Shown here one piece after another: positions 1-10,910 of a stretch of DNA of 64,000 nucleotides (its first letter is position 1; each line of letters opens with the position of its first letter). Source of the DNA: Curvularia clavata (taxonomy: Eukaryota); the NCBI GenBank assembly GCA_023920165.1, contig CP089279.1, positions 2,790,001 through 2,854,000 of the forward strand, written 5' to 3'. The notes beneath the pieces were generated by a model that had not been told where the DNA came from, did no database searches, and saw only the letters and a program-made list of their open reading frames with translations. The position numbers were made by a program, and so were the translations under genes.

Positions 1-1737
1 GGTACCGACACTGTCCCGTATGATGCTTTGTCGTATACTTGGGGCGGCACGGACAAGACTTCTACTGTAATAGTCAATGGGAAGACATTTGATGTTACTG
101 AAAACCTACACTCAGCCCTTCAACATCTTCGCTCGGAAGATATAGACAGAGTACTCTGGGTTGATGCTATTTGTATCGATCAAGACAACGAAAGGGAGCG
201 AGGACATCAAGTTCAACAGATGTGCAAGATCTATTCGCAAGCGGAGGAGGTGATTGTCTGGTTGGGCCAAGCAACGGAGGAAACCGATATCCTTATGGAC
301 TCTCTTCGGCGACTGGAAGAACATGGTTTAATGTATGGGCATAGATACTGGGACCTGGCACAGTGGACCACATCCTGGCTATCAGATCTTCGAGGTCTAG
401 GTTTTGAGCCATACAAAGGCCTAGATCTGATCTTAAGGAGACCGTGGTTTAGAAGAGTCTGGATCTTGCAGGAAATAGCCAATGCGAAGAAAGCAAGTGT
501 TTGGTGTGGCACCAAGTCTGTCAGAGCACATAACTTTGCCCTTGCTCCGTCGCTCATAGGCATCAAACCAGAACGTCATTGTCAAGCTGTCTTGGACATC
601 ATGCCTGGCCGCTTACGAGAAGAGTCCTGGTGGAGCGAGAACAGAGACCTGTACAACCTCTTGCTGAAGTTCAGCGAGAGCGAAGCGAGTGATCCACGCG
701 ACAAAGTCTACGCCTTACTGGGAATATCTTCTGACACTTGGAGCGCTAATAGTCTGCGTCCAGACTATACGAAAGGTCTTCAGGAAGTCATCCGTGATAC
801 TTCTTTGTTCTTATTTGGACCATCAGATGTTTCCTACGAGACAATGCCAGAGCTCTTAGAGGACCTTACCTCTCGAAATGCTACATCTTTCTTAGAGGTT
901 GTAAGAACATCTGATATAAGAGGAGTAGAACATTTCCTGGTGCGGCGAGGACTTGAGGTACCACTGTCAGAGGATATGATCAAATGCGCTGTAGAAAACG
1001 AAAAAAGTGGGATCGATATCTTGCGTCTTTTTCTCCAAAAACGCAGAGGTGAAGTCGAGGTAACAGAAGCAGTGGTCAAAGCCGCCGGAAAAAATGTGAA
1101 AAGCGGGAAGGACATCATAATCCTTCTTCTTCAACAATGCGACAACGAAGTTCAGATGATAAAAAGGTTTATCAACGCGCTCCAGGCGACTTCAGTCGGA
1201 GGCTCCGAGGCGGTAGTGAAACTGCTGCTCGACAAGGACAACGCCAAGGGTAGAATTTTCGCCAGCGCACTTTACGCGGCTGAAGCTGGAGGCCACAAGA
1301 CGGCGGTGAAGCTGCTACTCATCTATAGCGCCGACGCTAACACGAAGAGTGGACTATACAGCGACGCACTCTATAAGGCTTCAGCTAGAGGCCACGAGGC
1401 AGTGGTGAAGCTGCTACTCGACAATGGCGCTGAGGTCAACGCGAAAGATAGATGGTACAGCGACGCACTCTATAAGGCTTCAGCTAGAGGCCACGAGGCA
1501 GTGGTGAAGCTACTGCTCGACAAGGGTGCCGACGCTAACACGAAGGGTGGACTATACGGCAACGCACTCTATGCGGCTTCAGCTAGAGGCCACGGGGCAG
1601 TGGTGAAGCTGCTACTCGACAATGGCGCTGAGGTCGACGCGAAAGATGGATGGTACGGCAACGCACTCCAGGCAGCTTTAGCTGGAGGCCACAAGGCGGT
1701 GGTGACGCTGCTGCGCGACAAAGGTGTCGTCATGTAA
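1..1737 (+). CDS. HET-domain protein with helical repeats and C-terminal ankyrin repeats (5' end outside window)
   Basis: Frame open from base 1. HET motifs YDALSYTWG, LWVDAICIDQ, QVQQMCKIYSQAEEVIVWLG, WFRRVWILQE, ASDPRDKVYALLG. Two 'VTEAVVKAAGKN..GKDII.LLL' repeats, then about 6 ankyrin repeats. Confidence 0.93.
   Translation, partial: GTDTVPYDALSYTWGGTDKTSTVIVNGKTFDVTENLHSALQHLRSEDIDRVLWVDAICIDQDNERERGHQVQQMCKIYSQAEEVIVWLGQATEETDILMDSLRRLEEHGLMYGHRYWDLAQWTTSWLSDLRGLGFEPYKGLDLILRRPWFRRVWILQEIANAKKASVWCGTKSVRAHNFALAPSLIGIKPERHCQAVLDIMPGRLREESWWSENRDLYNLLLKFSESEASDPRDKVYALLGISSDTWSANSLRPDYTKGLQEVIRDTSLFLFGPSDVSYETMPELLEDLTSRNATSFLEVVRTSDIRGVEHFLVRRGLEVPLSEDMIKCAVENEKSGIDILRLFLQKRRGEVEVTEAVVKAAGKNVKSGKDIIILLLQQCDNEVQMIKRFINALQATSVGGSEAVVKLLLDKDNAKGRIFASALYAAEAGGHKTAVKLLLIYSADANTKSGLYSDALYKASARGHEAVVKLLLDNGAEVNAKDRWYSDALYKASARGHEAVVKLLLDKGADANTKGGLYGNALYAASARGHGAVVKLLLDNGAEVDAKDGWYGNALQAALAGGHKAVVTLLRDKGVVM
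1333..1728 (+). repeat. Tandem 99-bp ankyrin-coding repeats arranged as a duplicated 198-bp unit
   Basis: GACGCTAACACGAAG at 1333 and 1531; GCTTCAGCTAGAGGCCACG occurs three times at 99-bp spacing. Confidence 0.95.
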
Positions 1738-3632: not shown

Positions 3633-4287
3633 GGTCTTGCTGGTAACTACTCTTGCTCTTCCTGCCTCTTACTTCGAGTGGACTTTGCCTAGCTTGGGAT
3701 TCATGGATATACGATAGACTTGATTTATTTGTTTAGCGTACAATGACCAAGGTTGCTTATGCTTGTATTCAGTTGCATGCTGTTGTGTGCTTCATGTGCT
3801 GGTTGTTAGTGACGTTTGTCGCTGCAGTGTTGATGATTTATCCGAAGTCGAGACTTGATATGTAAAGAGAATAGGGAGGGCGACGAAAGAGGGCGACTTG
3901 CTCGTCTTTTGATCAGGATCGAAGTTGCGCTTGAGGCCCAGATCGTCAAGCTAGATTGAGATAGCCTCGCAGAGGTGGAAGTGGATCGCAAGAAAACGAT
4001 ATGCTCGTGATAGAGACTTGGTTCGTCAGATCGTGAAACGAGAGCCAGTAAGAAGAACATCTTTGTTCAGTCAATCTGCGGTTGGGTAGTTGCTTGGCTA
4101 GGCTGATGACTGGTAATATCATTTCCAGAACATTAACCCTGAGCTCACTGCCAACGATAGGGATTCAGACTGGAGAAGAAAAAGAACGTTTGTCACATTA
4201 CTACCACGCTACATGACTATTAAAAGGACCGTATTCTAAGGGAGGGAAGGTTCTGGGCAAACATTGTAATGAAATTCTCATGGCAGA

Positions 4288-6433
4288 TTACTGTGGACCG
4301 TTGGCTGTGTCGTCTGCGTCGCCGGCACCAGCTGCATCGTAGCCATTGTCGCCATTGTCGCCGACGGCATCGCCTCCATCTGCACCGTCGTCTCCATCAT
4401 CTCCATCGTCTCCATATGTTGCACAGAAATCATCATCTTCACCATCTTCATCGGCATCGTCTCCATCAAAATCAGAATACCACTCGACATCCATTTCGCG
4501 GACAGAGTTTGTGCCGCAGTGGACTTCACCATTACCACTGTGGTGCGTGTTCCAGTCATCAATGAAGATTACATCCATACCAAGGCGGCCATACTGCTCC
4601 TTGGCCTTTGCGGCGAGAATGTCAGTGCCGTTGACAAGAGGACCCCACGGGTTGGGCGCAATGTAGGTATCGAAGCCAGACATCACCAAACCATTGACCA
4701 AATTTGGCCACATGGCACCGAATTTAAACGTATCGGAGGAGTTGATGGGTGCATCAACAAGTGCATTAGTGAAGTTGTTAGTCGAGTCATCAGAAAAATT
4801 GCCCGGGAAGGAGCCCAAATCAAAGCGCTTGAACATCGCAGGCAGACGAATGATTTCATCGTCAGTCACGCCAGTGGCTTCCTTCAGGATCCGCAGATTT
4901 TTCTCGATGCGGTCGGCGCAGTACTTCTGGATAGACATCAGGTCCGCATTGGCAAGGATCTCGTTGATCGTGGTAGATTCGACAGGAACTGTTTGGCAGT
5001 CATCGTTGTCGCAAGGGGCTGGCGATGTATCGTTCTTACGAGAATAGACTGGCTGCGAGCCTTGTCCGCTGGCCTTGATGTCCTGCAGCATCTTAACGCC
5101 AGCCGTTGGGTCGTTAACCATAACAACCCAGCCACGTTCCGAGTCGGCGGGGATGAACTGCAGCACTTCGTCAACATGACCAGCCAGCAACCAGTCAGTA
5201 TCGAGAAGAAGCGGGTCCTGTGTTTCCTGAGCCTGAAAGAAGGGTACCAGGAAGTTTCGTTGCTGGCCGTGGTTGCCAATGACCAAACGTCCAGCGGGCC
5301 ACGAAGTACCGTTAAACTCATAAGGAGGAATGGTTTCAATATTACCACCAGAGTTGATCTGGTCGAGTGTGCCGCCGAGCTGCTGGACAGCACCAATGCC
5401 AGTGTCGCGGTAGTACTCGAACAGCTGCCTTCCGGCAACACGTTCATCCTGCGGAGACCTGATCATGATGCGTAGAGAAATAGGTCCACAGGGTCCAGGC
5501 ATGGAAGCAAATCCAGGCTCCATAAAGTCTTGAACCCAGATATCGTCGCTTACGTTGAAGAGGTAGAGATCCTCTTCCAGGCCAGACTCATTGACGGCTT
5601 TCTTGAGTTGCTCATTGAAGCGGACAAGCAGCGGGGAGTCAGTCTCGTTACCTTTGGCACCAAGGACCTGCTCCACAGTGTCGAGATGCGTATGTGTGAG
5701 AACAGGTGCGACGCGGAGCATAACACTGTCTGAAGACGTGCTGTTGGAACTCTTGACATCAAAAGTCACGAGAGCTCGGCCATCCCAGCCTTTGGGACGA
5801 CGAGTATCACGCCCGTCAATGCCGAGGACGAGACCCTCGCGCAGGGCGGCTGCGCTAAAGGTGTAATTGCCGTCCACATACGTCCAAGTGCTGTTCTCGT
5901 TCGCCTGGTAGAAGATTCGCACATTTTTGCGCTGCACTGGGTCCTTCAGGTAGACACGGCCAGAAGCGTCGTTGGGAAGGCCGGTCATGGGCACCGTAAG
6001 CAGCGGAGCAAGGAACTCCTCGTTGCGCAGAACGTTATCGGAGGCATCGTGACAGGCATCAAGCTTCTCATTGCTGACAGCAGGGCCCTTGAGGAGCGCA
6101 TTGGAACAACGTTTGTCTGTATCGCCAATGTTGGGAAGGAAAATGGCACCATAAGTGGCATTCCACGTAGTCTTTCCGTCCAGGTCCGCGGAGCCTTCTA
6201 TGTCAACAAACCCGTCGCGGTCTGTGTCGGCTCGGATATCCGCTTTTAGACTGGTGGGTGAAGGAATTGTGGCGGTGCCCGAGTCACGTGGAACCACCCT
6301 AGCAAGGGCTGAGGGCGCAAGGTCTAGCCTCGAATTAGCATGAATAGCCCTTATGAAACTGCATCTGTAGGGAAAATTCCCGGCTTGGATACATACAGAG
6401 ACCCGAAAGGGCAAGGAGCGCTGGGGTACGCAT
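4288..6433 (-). CDS. Secreted protein-arginine deiminase (PADI family) with acidic Asp/Gly tail
   Basis: Exon 1 6433-6397, intron 6396-6324 (GTATGT..GCTAAT..TAG), giving signal peptide MRTPALLALSGLYLAPSALA-RVVPRD. PAD catalytic motifs DIWVQD, SGGNIETIPP, WLLAGHVDE, GEVHCGTN. Confidence 0.92.
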
Positions 6434-7077
6434 TTTGCGTTCGGTTTGGTGTAAAACCAATTTTTCCTCTCAGGGGCTTCTGTCTGCAAGTGTGTTTGAA
6501 GACTATCTGGAAATGGATTGATGACTAGATAGTAGCTGTGGCTTGAGTCTGTTGAAGTATGACATCCTTATAAATGCAGTCTTCGGTCACAAGAACCAAA
6601 GCGCAATCTCGTTCATCATCTCAAGGTGATTGCGTGTGTTCTGCGCGTATACACTGAACGCGTAGCCAACGGCGTATAGCTACGGTCGCTCGTCCTGCGT
6701 AAAAACAATGTCATCAAATTGGATGGGAACATTTTACGTTCACTCGATTTGGACATCGAGGGTTTGACAAGGGCGGAAGCTGACGCTGCTCGCGAGGATC
6801 ATGGCAACGGCCCGCCGGAGGTTAAAGAAACGACGAGCTGTGATTGGTCCGTACTCCGAGCGTATGGTGAAAGCACCCTGTCTATACGCTCTGGCCAATG
6901 ATAGCTCTGGAAATTGCGCCGGATTAGGCCGACCAACCGGCCCTTAACGTGAGACTGCGCCCCCATTCTACGCCTCCTGGGAAAGCTGCATCTCTCTCGA
7001 GGTTTTCTTATGACTGTGGCTCCTACCAAGTCCTGCGCTGTCTTAGTCAAGATCTTCAACTAGGCCGAGCTCTTACG

Positions 7078-9145
7078 ATGCAGATTCAGAAGCCCAACCA
7101 TCCATTATACGCTGTAGCCAATGACGCCCTCATGGGGTTGCCAGTGCGATCCAAAGCGCCTCGAGTGCGTGCCTTTTCACCAAAAGTTCGCACCGGATGT
7201 ATAACGTGGTATGTTGCTCCCGATCCGTGATAAAGCGTAGTTGTTGCTTGTTCATTCCTCTCTTTTTCTCTGTTCTGGTTGTGCCGTCTGTTGTGTTGTC
7301 GGGTCGAGTTGTCTACCGACTAGCGATACACAAGAGACATCATAACATACCCGAGAGTCAATCTGCGCTCTTTTCTTTTTCGTCCGAGGCATTATGAAAT
7401 TCTTATTAACACTTTGTGACAGCAAGTAAGTGTGCTCTGCTGTTATATGGGGAAGTGTCTACCTTCCTTCACTACACACCGAATACCGTCTTCGTCCTAC
7501 ATATTCTATGTCGTACGCCCCACATCATGTGTGGGGAAGGTGGAGTATCACAAGATGTTTGTATTGGTAGAGACATAGGCTGACATAAGATTTTACGCTT
7601 GACAGAATACGTCGGAAGAAGTGTGACGAAGAGAAGCCAACATGCCGCCGATGCAGGGACAGTCAGGTAAAGTGCGATGGGTATGCACCTGTACCTGTCT
7701 CGCAGAAGAAGACACCCTCGCAGAAGCATGCGGCTGCGAAGAAGAAAGTCATAAAGAGCACTCAAGAAATGGTGCAGCGTGTCGCCAGCCAGTCACAACC
7801 GCGCTTCATCATCCAAGGCAATCGGCTCAACTTCGACGTTGATGGTGGCGTCTACGACCGGATGTTCTTCCATCACTTCCGTGCCATCACTATGGTTGAC
7901 TTTGTTCGTATCTCCAATCCCCAGGACTTTTGGTCCCAGAGGGTGCTTCCAATGTGTCACGAAGAGCCTGCCGTACGGAATGCAGTCGTTGCACTTGGCG
8001 CAGCCCACTATGTCTATCTCCAAAAGCTCCAGGACTCTTGTTTAGGAGGCACCGACACATCCATATCCCACTACGAGTGTGTTGCAACACAATATTATAA
8101 CAAAGCCATCGGAGAGTTGGTCAAACTCAACGGCGGCGGCGACTCAACAATATGGGATGCTCAACTCAAGACTCTGATTTGTTGCCTCCTCTTTGTCTGT
8201 CTGGAGAACGTCCTTGGCCGCTTCGATGAAGGAATTCGTCACATGCAAGCTGGCGCCCGCGTCTTCAAAACTTCCGACTTGACGACTGCCCCACAGAATC
8301 TACAGCGAGTCATGCGAGAGATTGCAACCGTCTTACTCCATTTTTGCGTCGATGTATCCTATCTTGATGACGACTTTGATGCTCCGAATTTGATACCACA
8401 CGCCCTCCCTCTAGCAGAGATTGATGACGAGCTACGACCATTCTCGAGCCTCGAAGAAGCCAAAGAAGCCATATGGGTTCTGGATGTCAAGATGGCTTAC
8501 CTGGACTGTGACGAAAACGATCCAAACGCGTCGCTCATTAAAGATTGCGGCATGCCCGACATGAGCTCTCTCATTGAGCCATTTGAACGCTGGAAGACAA
8601 GATTCAATCTGCTCATTTCCTCCCAGATCGACTCTCCAGATGTACCGCTTGACGTCCAGCTGGAGACGTTGAACCTGATAGTTCGCCGCTGCTCGTGGGA
8701 CATATTACTAATACCGGACGGCCCAGATCAGGACGAGGAACTAGCGAGACTCAATCGCGAACTGGTTGATACGGCGGAGCTTTTGTACAGCATCGAGAAA
8801 TCCTCCTTGGGCCGACCCATGTTCACACTGGAGGGCGACAGTATTCCCGCCCTCTTCTTTGTTGGCTTGATGTGTGAGGATCCTGTCTTGATCGAGCGCG
8901 TCACCAAACTCTTGCGTGACTCTGGGAGACGCGAAGGTCCTTGGGACGGCCGGGAAGCGGCGGCGAGACTGATAGCCGAATTGGAGAACCCCAGTCCTTG
9001 CCCGTCAAAGATGCCGCCCGTTACCACTCCAGAGCTCATTTTAGATGGAACCCCAGAATTTGCCCTGGACTCTACGCCAGAATTAAGCCCGGAACCCATA
9101 CCGGATTTCTTTTCATATCCAGTTTTGAAGACAGAGATAGTTTGA
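7078..9145 (+). CDS. Zn(II)2Cys6 transcription factor with fungal-specific TF domain
   Basis: Exons 7078-7208, 7423-7425, 7606-9145 give KVRTGCITCKIRRKKCDEEKPTCRRCRDSQVKCDGY, in frame with the 7769 ORF (FWSQRVLPMCHEEPAVRNAVVALGAAH; RREGPWD). Start could be 7132. Confidence 0.88.
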
Positions 9146-9551
9146 TAATGCCATTCTTGTTGTCTTTTCAATCATCATCTCATGCTGGGCGACGACCCTT
9201 ACTTCTTTTGACTGATTGTGCTGGTTTTCCGCGTCAAACACTGTAGGTAATTCGGAAAAACGTCCGGGATTTATGTTAACCCCGCATTTGTCGATCATTT
9301 ATTCCGCGATCGACATGCACCGAATGTAACTATCAGGAGCTAGGCAAACCTTGGATTGTAAGCATTCAGTTGGCAAATGAATGCTTGGTCAACATTCCTA
9401 GCTTCCGATTTATCTCGTGGGAGCCATTACTACATTAGTCTTGACTAGATGTAGTGGCAAGACATTCATCACTGTCATGGAAAAAGATAAATACAAGTTT
9501 GAGAGAATTTCCCTGCTGTGGTGACAAATCATCATAATCTTAACTTTCAAC

Positions 9552-10910
9552 ATGGCGACACTACAACTTGCGTCTTGGGCTACCAACTTGACATACTCCA
9601 ACCTCAGCAATGGTGTGCTCGCGGCTGCCAACAAATCTTTCTTCAACTGGGCTGGTTGTGCAATCGGCGGTTTCCCCTTCCAGGCCGCACCGCAGATTGC
9701 ACTGAATACTACACTTTCTCAATTTTCTGGACCGCCAATCTCCTCAATTCTAGGCGCAAACAACTCTATATCGCGAGGTTTTGGGGACGCTCAAACCGCC
9801 GCTCTTATCAACGGTATTGCTAGTCACGTCGATGACTATGACGATACACACCTGGAGACTATTATCCATCCTGCTGGACCTGTTGCTAGCGCTCTTCTAG
9901 CCATAGCAGAAGCATATGGCCCTGTCAATGGCCATGACTTCATAACTGCGTTTGTGGCAGGTATAGAGGCAGAATGCAAGTTGGGATTGTCAGTCACGCC
10001 AGAACACTACGATGTTGGCTGGCACATTACTTCAACCACTGGGTCCGTTGGCGCAGCAGTTGGTGTAGGCAAGCTTCTCGGACTAAACACGACGCACATG
10101 CAGAACGCGATCGGTATTGCTGCTACCCAGGTTGTGGGCATGCAGGTATACTTTGGCTCGGACACCAAATCCTTTCATGTTGGCCGTGCTGCGCAGGGAG
10201 GTATGTTGGCGGCATTGCTAGCAAGAAACGGATACACCTCATCTCCTGAAGCCTTGGAAGCCAAATATGGCTGGCTCCATGTAGTGAGCACACGAGAGAA
10301 CGCAACAGCATACTTTGACCAACTCGGAAAGATTTGGGAAATCGAGAAAAACACTTTTAAGCCCTATCCTTGTGGAATCGTCATGCATCCAACCATTGAC
10401 GCTGCCATACATCTTCGAAACGAGACACTATCACGCGGCCTTTCAATCGAAGACATCAAGGCTGTACAATTGCGTGTCAACCCCGAAGTTCTCATCCTGA
10501 CCGGCAAAAAAGCCCCCCAAACTGGGCTTGAGGGCAAATTCAGCATCTACCACGCTGCTGCAGTAGGTCTACTCTACGGAGAGGCAACACCTAGTCAGTT
10601 CACCGACAGTGTCATCAAAAATTCGACTGTTGTGGATATGCGTAAGAAGGTTAACGCTACGGAAGACGAGGGGGTCTCCCGCGCAGAAGCATATGTTACG
10701 CTGACGTTCAACAATGGCACGAAGCTAGAGCGGCATGTAGAGCATGCTAAGGGCAGTATCCAGAACCCTCTTACCGACGAAGAGTTGAGGGAAAAGTTTA
10801 TGGGTCAGGTGAGCTTGGCTATTGGATCTGATCGCGCAGCGAATGCGTATGCGGCATTCTCGAATGTACAGCAGATGCGTGATGTGGCGGTGATACGGCG
10901 CATGTATTAG
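9552..10910 (+). CDS. MmgE/PrpD-family protein (2-methylcitrate dehydratase / cis-aconitate decarboxylase-like)
   Basis: INGIASHVDDYDDTH, IIHP, GWHITSTTG, TKSFHVGRAAQGG, FKPYPCG, GKFSIYH motifs; single exon. Confidence 0.92.
   Translation: MATLQLASWATNLTYSNLSNGVLAAANKSFFNWAGCAIGGFPFQAAPQIALNTTLSQFSGPPISSILGANNSISRGFGDAQTAALINGIASHVDDYDDTHLETIIHPAGPVASALLAIAEAYGPVNGHDFITAFVAGIEAECKLGLSVTPEHYDVGWHITSTTGSVGAAVGVGKLLGLNTTHMQNAIGIAATQVVGMQVYFGSDTKSFHVGRAAQGGMLAALLARNGYTSSPEALEAKYGWLHVVSTRENATAYFDQLGKIWEIEKNTFKPYPCGIVMHPTIDAAIHLRNETLSRGLSIEDIKAVQLRVNPEVLILTGKKAPQTGLEGKFSIYHAAAVGLLYGEATPSQFTDSVIKNSTVVDMRKKVNATEDEGVSRAEAYVTLTFNNGTKLERHVEHAKGSIQNPLTDEELREKFMGQVSLAIGSDRAANAYAAFSNVQQMRDVAVIRRMY

Follow-up and report, generated by a model that had tools for sequence, protein, structure and literature searches.

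The peptidyl-arginine deiminases of the PADI type have been studied almost wholly as intracellular, calcium-switched regulators in animals, and the human and other animal enzymes act inside the cell. The locus described here raises the question of whether a fungal member of the family works on the outside. The locus is located at 6433..4288 on the minus strand of a 64,000-nucleotide (nt) stretch of DNA from Curvularia clavata (contig CP089279.1, positions 2,790,001 to 2,854,000), which was analyzed as a whole and is referred to below as the window. An initial annotation of the window had proposed a secreted protein-arginine deiminase whose signal peptide is supplied by a short first exon missed by the list of open reading frames (ORFs). 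Our results make it likely that a Curvularia-like fungus of the Pleosporales encodes here, in a gene with one intron, a two-domain PADI-type peptidyl-arginine deiminase that is secreted.

RESULTS

The deiminase gene contains a single intron behind a 37-nt first exon

The deiminase gene consists of two exons on the minus strand (6433..4288), and its spliced coding sequence of 2,073 nt is translated into 690 residues followed by a stop codon. Its parts are as follows.

6397..6433, minus strand: exon 1, 37 nt, with the ATG at 6433-6431, residues 1-12, and the first base of codon 13
6324..6396, minus strand: intron, 73 nt, phase 1, with GT..AG borders, beginning with GTATGT and ending with TAG
4288..6323, minus strand: exon 2, 2,036 nt including the TAA stop at 4290-4288, residues 13-690
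6301..6323, minus strand: start of exon 2, the remaining signal peptide (residues 13-20), with predicted cleavage after A-L-A (Ala20) and before R-V-V-P-R-D

Exon 1 codes for the n-region and most of the h-region of the predicted signal peptide, and a branch-like motif, CTAAT, is found ~12 bases ahead of the final AG of the intron. The start ATG and the long open frame at 4288-6567 are in different frames, and the first in-frame Met of that long frame is residue 124. Splicing is therefore needed, and the ORF list alone gives no sensible start.

Splicing was examined with the contigs of four coded public runs (X1, X2, X9, and X10) aligned to positions 4200-6600. In the contigs of X1, X9, and X10, which carry three study codes and three organism codes, position 6323 was joined directly to position 6397. 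Exactly 73 nt were skipped, with ends of CT..AC on the plus strand, i.e., GT..AG on the gene strand, and the shorter side of the overlap at the junction was 204, 128, and 70 letters, respectively. No contig of X2 bridges 6265-6401, and this run is hence silent on splicing. A second joint within 4200-6600 was not seen in the contigs of the four runs. Since the contigs were collinear with the window over 4424-6323 in X1 and over 4200-6119 in X2, exon 2 contains no further intron, and the gene has a single one. Spliced RNA is the best explanation for an intron-less form that recurs in three independent data sets with exact GT..AG borders.

The 37-nt exon with its signal peptide is thus spliced as the initial annotation had proposed. 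Its description as "cryptic" did not hold: the exon is already included in an uncharacterised public protein of Curvularia clavata at NCBI (P0002; 690 residues), the top hit of the database search, which is 100% identical to the spliced translation, leader included, and is cryptic to a plain ORF track alone.

Ahead of the start codon, three upstream ATGs open short frames on the minus strand. Two of them, at 6619 and 6616, open frames of 10 and 9 codons that end at 6587, and the third, at 6565, opens a frame of 20 codons that ends at 6503. The sequence TATAAG is found at 6572-6567 on the same strand. The contigs of X1 and X2 extend past 6600 and that of X9 stops at 6524; because the contig ends differ, the presence of the upstream frames in the mRNA leader depends on the true start site. 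Three frames that overlap the gene or run antisense to it (4273-5475, plus strand; 5734-6249, plus strand; and 4938-5462, minus strand) matched no Pfam family and were read as shadows of the coding frame.

The product is a deiminase with a middle and a catalytic domain

We then assigned the 690-residue product to a family by profile, sequence, and fold. The Pfam family PF03068 matched residues 208-628 with 371.8-371.9 bits (cut-off, 25) and an E-value of 5.2e-111 to 5.4e-111, covering profile positions 2-394 of 395. It was the sole Pfam family at E-values up to 0.01, also when all 690 residues were used, and the profile of the Porphyromonas-type PAD/agmatine deiminase family (PF04371) was not among the matches at this threshold. 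In a sequence search of the PDB, the top match was human PAD3 (E, 1e-38), and a profile built from 58 relatives matched PAD4 with an E-value of 5e-87 over chain residues 117-663.

An AlphaFold model built on the alignment of the 58 relatives had a mean predicted local distance difference test (pLDDT) score of 86.5 and a predicted template modeling (pTM) score of 0.84. The model is confident from residue 33, and its low-confidence parts are residues 1-32, 516-534, and 633-690. The top Foldseek match of the model was PADI4 (E, 2.9e-44), and all 50 of the 50 rows listed were PADs. VIA-align of the model against PAD4 (3b1u) gave a Z score of 48.6 and a root-mean-square deviation of 2.2, with 504 residues aligned at 26% identity. 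Model residues 32-630 superpose on PAD4 108-661, and only the leader and a disordered linker stand ahead of them. The middle and catalytic domains are therefore present, and PAD_N is absent. These results indicate that the gene product is a PADI-type (PF03068) deiminase of the two-domain (PAD_M plus PAD_C) type. The domains and the candidate active-site residues are located as follows.

5740..6246, minus strand: PAD_M-like middle domain, ~residues 39-207, from the model, the PAD4 profile alignment, and conservation
4477..5739, minus strand: catalytic PAD_C domain, residues 208-628, from Pfam and from sequence and fold matches to PAD1-4 in the PDB
5527..5529, minus strand: codon of Asp278, the guanidinium-holding Asp (D350 of PAD3/4), at least 90% conserved in 58 relatives
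5170..5178, minus strand: codons of His395-Val396-Asp397, corresponding to H470 and D472 of PAD3, at least 90% conserved in 58 relatives
4516..4518, minus strand: codon of Cys615, the catalytic nucleophile, in the motif E-V-H-C-G-T-N, invariant in 58 of 58 relatives
4291..4476, minus strand: disordered acidic tail, ~residues 629-690, pLDDT below 50

The middle domain opens at an invariant D-I-R-A-D..D-G motif. In full-length numbering, D278, H395, D397, and C615 align to D350, H470, D472, and the catalytic Cys of PAD3, and they align likewise to PAD4, for which the catalytic set is given as D350, H471, D473, and C645 (Harris 2020 preprint, 10.1101/2020.07.16.207027). Both the assignment to the PADI type and the intact Asp/His/Asp/Cys set, as first described for this locus, are borne out by the PF03068 match, the PAD fold, and these alignments. 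The ligands of calcium site 1, Q277 and E281, are also kept and are invariant among the 58 relatives.

The mature protein is very acidic, with a net charge of approximately -57, and its last 63 residues contain 23 Asp and 14 Gly. Acidic tails were found in just 5 of 158 relatives carrying the C-terminal motif, and those five are close Pleosporales. One may speculate that the tail helps to capture cationic substrates or calcium. The length of the tail differs between strains: in X2, 9 nt are deleted at 4342 and 27 nt inserted after 4411, both in frame, and the stop codon of X2 differs by one base and is still a stop.

The product carries a predicted export leader, many sequons, and a conserved cysteine pair

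The predicted N-terminal leader comprises 20 residues, MRTPALLALSGLYLAPSALA. Its start is basic (Arg2), residues 5-23 form a hydrophobic core, and A-L-A puts small residues at positions -3 and -1 of the predicted cut after Ala20. The same A-L-A/R junction recurs in the Pleosporales relatives P0003 and P0007. When the protein was scanned for hydropathy in 19-residue windows, the top six all fell within residues 1-24, and there is no second hydrophobic segment. Signals for retention in the endoplasmic reticulum (ER) or for a glycosylphosphatidylinositol (GPI)-like anchor were not found at the C-terminus, which has no KDEL or HDEL and no hydrophobic end and is acidic and polar.

The N-glycosylation sequons, which had been noted as numerous, were counted against shuffled sequences. 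The protein has 13 N-x-S/T sequons compared with 4.9 +/- 2.1 in 2,000 shuffles of the mature sequence, and 0 of the 2,000 reached 13. Two of the sequons are widely shared among 29 fungal relatives, N238 in 24 and N443 in 26. The median sequon count was 6 in the 29 fungal rows versus 2 in 29 unnamed rows from the representative search, which look bacterial by their leaders. Furthermore, Cys85 is kept in 56 and Cys103 in 57 of the 58 relatives, and the two residues flank an insert that animal PADs lack; the pair looks like a disulfide. Taken together, secretion of the deiminase is a well-supported prediction.

Predicted export leaders precede the same domain start in fungi and bacteria

We also surveyed the leaders of the family. 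Among 268 proteins fetched, 94 were full-length by our criteria, and in 66 of these 94 the D-I-R-A-D domain start was directly preceded by a leader that was 15 residues or longer and had a hydrophobic core (score of at least 2.0). The leaderless relatives are probably for the most part truncated models in which a short first exon was missed, and localisation predictions made from such public models would be wrong. The public models P0004, P0005, P0006, P0011, P0012, P0016, and others begin at or just before the conserved domain, and P0006 splices out part of the leader.

For bacteria, 80 loci were surveyed, and the domain-start motif was found in 70 of them. All 70 have a start codon ahead of a hydrophobic segment, and the score was at least 2.0 in 62 of 70. 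In a rough control, this score was also reached by 129 of 714 other ORFs of 250 residues or more from these loci. In 10 Nocardia loci (L014, L015, L018, L019, L022, L028, L033, L041, L042, and L051), a lipobox-like motif (L-A-G-C or L-T-A-C) stands at the leader end, which suggests that these relatives may be lipoprotein-anchored and not freely secreted. A loose twin-arginine translocation (Tat) motif matched 10 of 70 bacterial leaders, and use of the Tat pathway is not claimed from that count.

The predicted leader is a trait of the whole two-domain family, in both fungi and bacteria, and it is conserved in position and not in sequence, as expected of export signals. Export itself may extend to all of the two-domain PADI family, with fungal ER signal peptides and actinobacterial Sec-type or lipoprotein leaders placed before the same domain start; we hold this wider reading tentatively, as falling a little short of probable.

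The gene belongs to a fungal clade linked to actinobacteria

Relatives of the deiminase were collected by several searches. A word-indexed search scored 8,000 candidates and found 465 relatives; among the 120 matches listed, the named ones were fungal, almost all of them ascomycetes, and many rows were nameless. An exhaustive search gave 1,888 cluster representatives at E-values up to 0.001. In prokaryotes, searched with one genome per species, a relative is encoded in 427 of the 445 stretches that matched. The best 80 bacterial loci showed 35-50% identity, and 77 of these 80 belong to Actinomycetota, including 58 from Streptomyces and 10 from Nocardia.

A quick maximum-likelihood tree without an outgroup was built from 28 fungal and 24 bacterial rows, the latter picked from the 80 loci to spread genera. 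All fungi were on one side of a branch with a Shimodaira-Hasegawa-like approximate likelihood ratio test (SH-aLRT) value of 100, and the Curvularia protein was placed among Pleosporales sequences. A link between fungal and bacterial copies, which the initial annotation had noted, thus reappears in a phylogeny run against bacterial copies, in which the fungal clade is tied to mainly actinobacterial ones. The tree and the loci agree with the fungal-actinobacterial link published by Cummings 2021 (Mol Biol Evol, PMC8826395), who define the two-domain PADI type and propose a transfer from actinobacteria to fungi. In that paper, PADI is tabulated in 177 of 1,098 fungal species, and active enzymes from Aspergillus nidulans and Emericella dentata are cited. 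These results place the gene, which public annotation already includes, as a regular member in the known two-domain PADI clade of fungi.

Export of such enzymes is not mentioned in the papers searched. The terms "signal peptide" and "secreted" have 0 occurrences each in Cummings 2021 (PMC8826395); "secret," "extracellular," "periplasm," and "Tat" are absent from the Harris 2020 preprint (10.1101/2020.07.16.207027), and export is unmentioned in a 2026 paper on citrulassin N. The functions of fungal and bacterial PADIs are called "completely unknown" in a 2022 review (PMC9174705). A Bipolaris/Exserohilum genome paper and a Pythium paper list a deiminase annotation and nothing more, and the statement of a 2008 chromatin review that fungi have no PADI4 homologue is now outdated. 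Papers on a centipede-venom PAD and on Aspergillus fumigatus AihA concern the Porphyromonas/agmatine-deiminase family and were set aside. Neither a secreted fungal PF03068 enzyme, nor secretome data on this or a related PF03068 protein, nor an experimental localisation of any fungal member was found in the literature searched, which excluded supplementary secretome tables. The apparently family-wide export in the two-domain PADI clade, which we did not find stated in that literature, is a useful addition.

The neighboring genes form no biosynthetic or infection-related cluster

The neighboring genes in the window are the following.

1-1737, plus strand: HET-ankyrin gene, running off the window start, with a HET (heterokaryon incompatibility) domain, DUF7104, and ankyrin repeats
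7589-9145, plus strand: Zn2Cys6 fungal transcription factor, divergent from the deiminase gene, with ~1.15 kilobases between the starts
9525-10910, plus strand: MmgE/PrpD-family protein, following the Zn2Cys6 factor

Ribosome-biogenesis and other housekeeping genes are located beyond the MmgE/PrpD gene. No biosynthetic or infection-related cluster around the deiminase gene was seen among these neighbors.

DISCUSSION

The spliced gene, the two-domain PAD fold, and the export features can be joined in one likely course of events. The leader would direct the protein into the ER and be cut after Ala20. N-glycosylation would take place at some or all of the 13 sequons, among them N238 and N443, which most fungal relatives conserve; the Cys85-Cys103 disulfide would form; and the protein would leave the cell. 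Calcium is plentiful outside, and this would suit an enzyme of a family that needs much calcium. There, Cys615 would act as the nucleophile and His395 as the base, with Asp278 and Asp397 holding the guanidinium, and arginine side chains of exposed peptides or proteins would be converted to citrulline and ammonia with removal of the positive charge. The acidic surface and the Asp/Gly-rich tail may favor arginine-rich, cationic substrates.

Several observations weigh against this reading or its extension to the family. The runs that show the splice bear the label "RNA?", which is a guess, and the criteria applied to the leader were confined to hydropathy, the -3/-1 rule, and conservation. In the family survey, 28 of the 94 full-length relatives have no clear leader (fewer than 15 residues precede the domain in 11, and the score is 1.5-2.0 in 8 and below 1.5 in 9). 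Ten of the 80 bacterial loci were left unscored, as the motif search missed them, and the control set for the bacterial scores contains spurious frames of GC-rich DNA. With respect to activity, the ligands of calcium site 2 are replaced, with F279 at the position of E351 and a nearly invariant R301 at that of D369, and Gly occupies the position of PAD4 D388. Since the site 2 ligands and the switch residue are lost, human PADs cannot serve as the template for its calcium control. The ligands were matched to numbered calcium sites partly from general background. In addition, an extracellular catalytic thiol has to remain reduced.

Among the other explanations, the one that survives best gives the exported enzyme a part in defense or attack, in which it would citrullinate and thereby disarm cationic antimicrobial peptides or other arginine-rich proteins of a host plant or of microbial competitors, much as the initial annotation had suggested. 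The export signals are compatible with such a role, a very acidic protein with an acidic tail would attract cationic substrates, and Curvularia clavata is called plant-pathogenic in one report (PMC5900794). There is also a parallel in the unrelated secreted PPAD of Porphyromonas, described as neutralising innate defenses (PMC7864903). However, the family is also common in soil actinobacteria without hosts, the genes beside the deiminase give no hint of an infection-related cluster, and no paper on citrullination by a fungal effector was found in the literature searched. We therefore consider this role somewhat unlikely.

The enzyme may alternatively act on the fungus's own products in the secretory pathway, maturing a secreted peptide or modifying wall or secreted proteins. 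The one substrate that genetics has defined for a two-domain PF03068 enzyme is indeed a self-made peptide, with the deiminase gene apart from the peptide cluster, and the export leaders of the bacterial relatives fit action on exported peptides. Near the gene, by contrast, there is neither a peptide precursor nor a biosynthetic cluster, and a citrulline-bearing fungal peptide was not found in the literature searched. This explanation is unlikely on present evidence.

Nitrogen scavenging, i.e., extracellular release of ammonia from arginine residues, small arginine peptides, or free guanidino compounds, is a quite improbable function. Ammonia is a product of the reaction, predicted export would resemble that of many nutrient-releasing fungal hydrolases, and the family is patchy and dispensable, as its tabulated occurrence in 177 of 1,098 fungal species illustrates (Cummings 2021, PMC8826395). 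Nevertheless, one ammonia per arginine is a poor yield in comparison with proteases plus uptake, and arginine or urea pathway genes are absent nearby. PADI-family enzymes are known for action on peptidyl, not free, arginine.

That the leader is nonfunctional for export, so that the enzyme is retained in the ER or vacuole or remains intracellular as animal PADIs do, in the cytosol or nucleus, is very unlikely: although an experimental localisation of any fungal member was not found in the literature searched, the tripartite leader is conserved in position across fungi and bacteria, the sequons are enriched and partly conserved, the Cys pair is near-invariant, and the protein has no retention motif and no second hydrophobic segment.

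For the secreted two-domain deiminase that we favor, the leader, the sequon enrichment, and the Cys pair narrow the search for a role to the cell exterior. If export is family-wide, citrullination by this clade would occur outside the cytoplasm in both kingdoms, and the enzyme that fungi acquired from bacteria would already have been extracellular and would then have received a eukaryotic leader, which in this gene has a mini-exon to itself. The fungal function would then have to be sought among extracellular arginine-rich peptides, whether of a host, of a competitor, or self-made.

Comparison with known systems

The closest counterparts are the fungal and actinobacterial two-domain PADIs (Cummings 2021, PMC8826395), with which the Curvularia protein shares PAD_M and PAD_C, the lack of PAD_N, and an extra conserved segment within the calcium 3-5 region. 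It also displays the pattern described in that paper for the two-domain type, in which site 1 is kept, other residues stand in for the ligands of sites 2 and 4, and Gly takes the place of the switch Asp, at the D388/D389 position. It departs slightly in the triple-His motif of the strand joining the two domains, where two of three His are kept, T-H-T-H-L here versus the consensus T-H-H-H-L of the 58 relatives, and the protein adds its 63-residue Asp/Gly-rich tail to the typical architecture.

Human PADI1-4 (3b1u, 7dan, and 4n2c) have the same middle and catalytic fold and the same Asp/His/Asp/Cys set. They differ in that the Curvularia protein is without PAD_N, has an N-terminal export leader, and does not conserve calcium sites 2 and 4. 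PADI2-4 form a head-to-tail dimer according to the 2022 review (PMC9174705), and in the absence of PAD_N a similar dimer is unlikely for the Curvularia protein.

In Streptomyces albulus, a PF03068 deiminase is reported as required for the citrulline of the lasso peptide citrulassin A, and citrulassin deiminase genes are described as sitting outside the peptide biosynthetic clusters (Harris 2020 preprint, 10.1101/2020.07.16.207027). This deiminase belongs to the same two-domain clade, and Streptomyces loci are 36-50% identical to the Curvularia protein. The Streptomyces relatives examined carry export leaders, as the Curvularia protein does; unlike the latter, the citrulassin deiminase is bacterial, and its substrate is the producer's own lasso peptide.

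PPAD of Porphyromonas gingivalis is described as secreted and as neutralising innate defenses (PMC7864903), and also as calcium-independent and alignable just in short active-site motifs (Harris 2020 preprint, 10.1101/2020.07.16.207027). It is thus a secreted, peptide-arginine-citrullinating analogue of the role proposed for the Curvularia deiminase, but one that belongs to a different family (PF04371).

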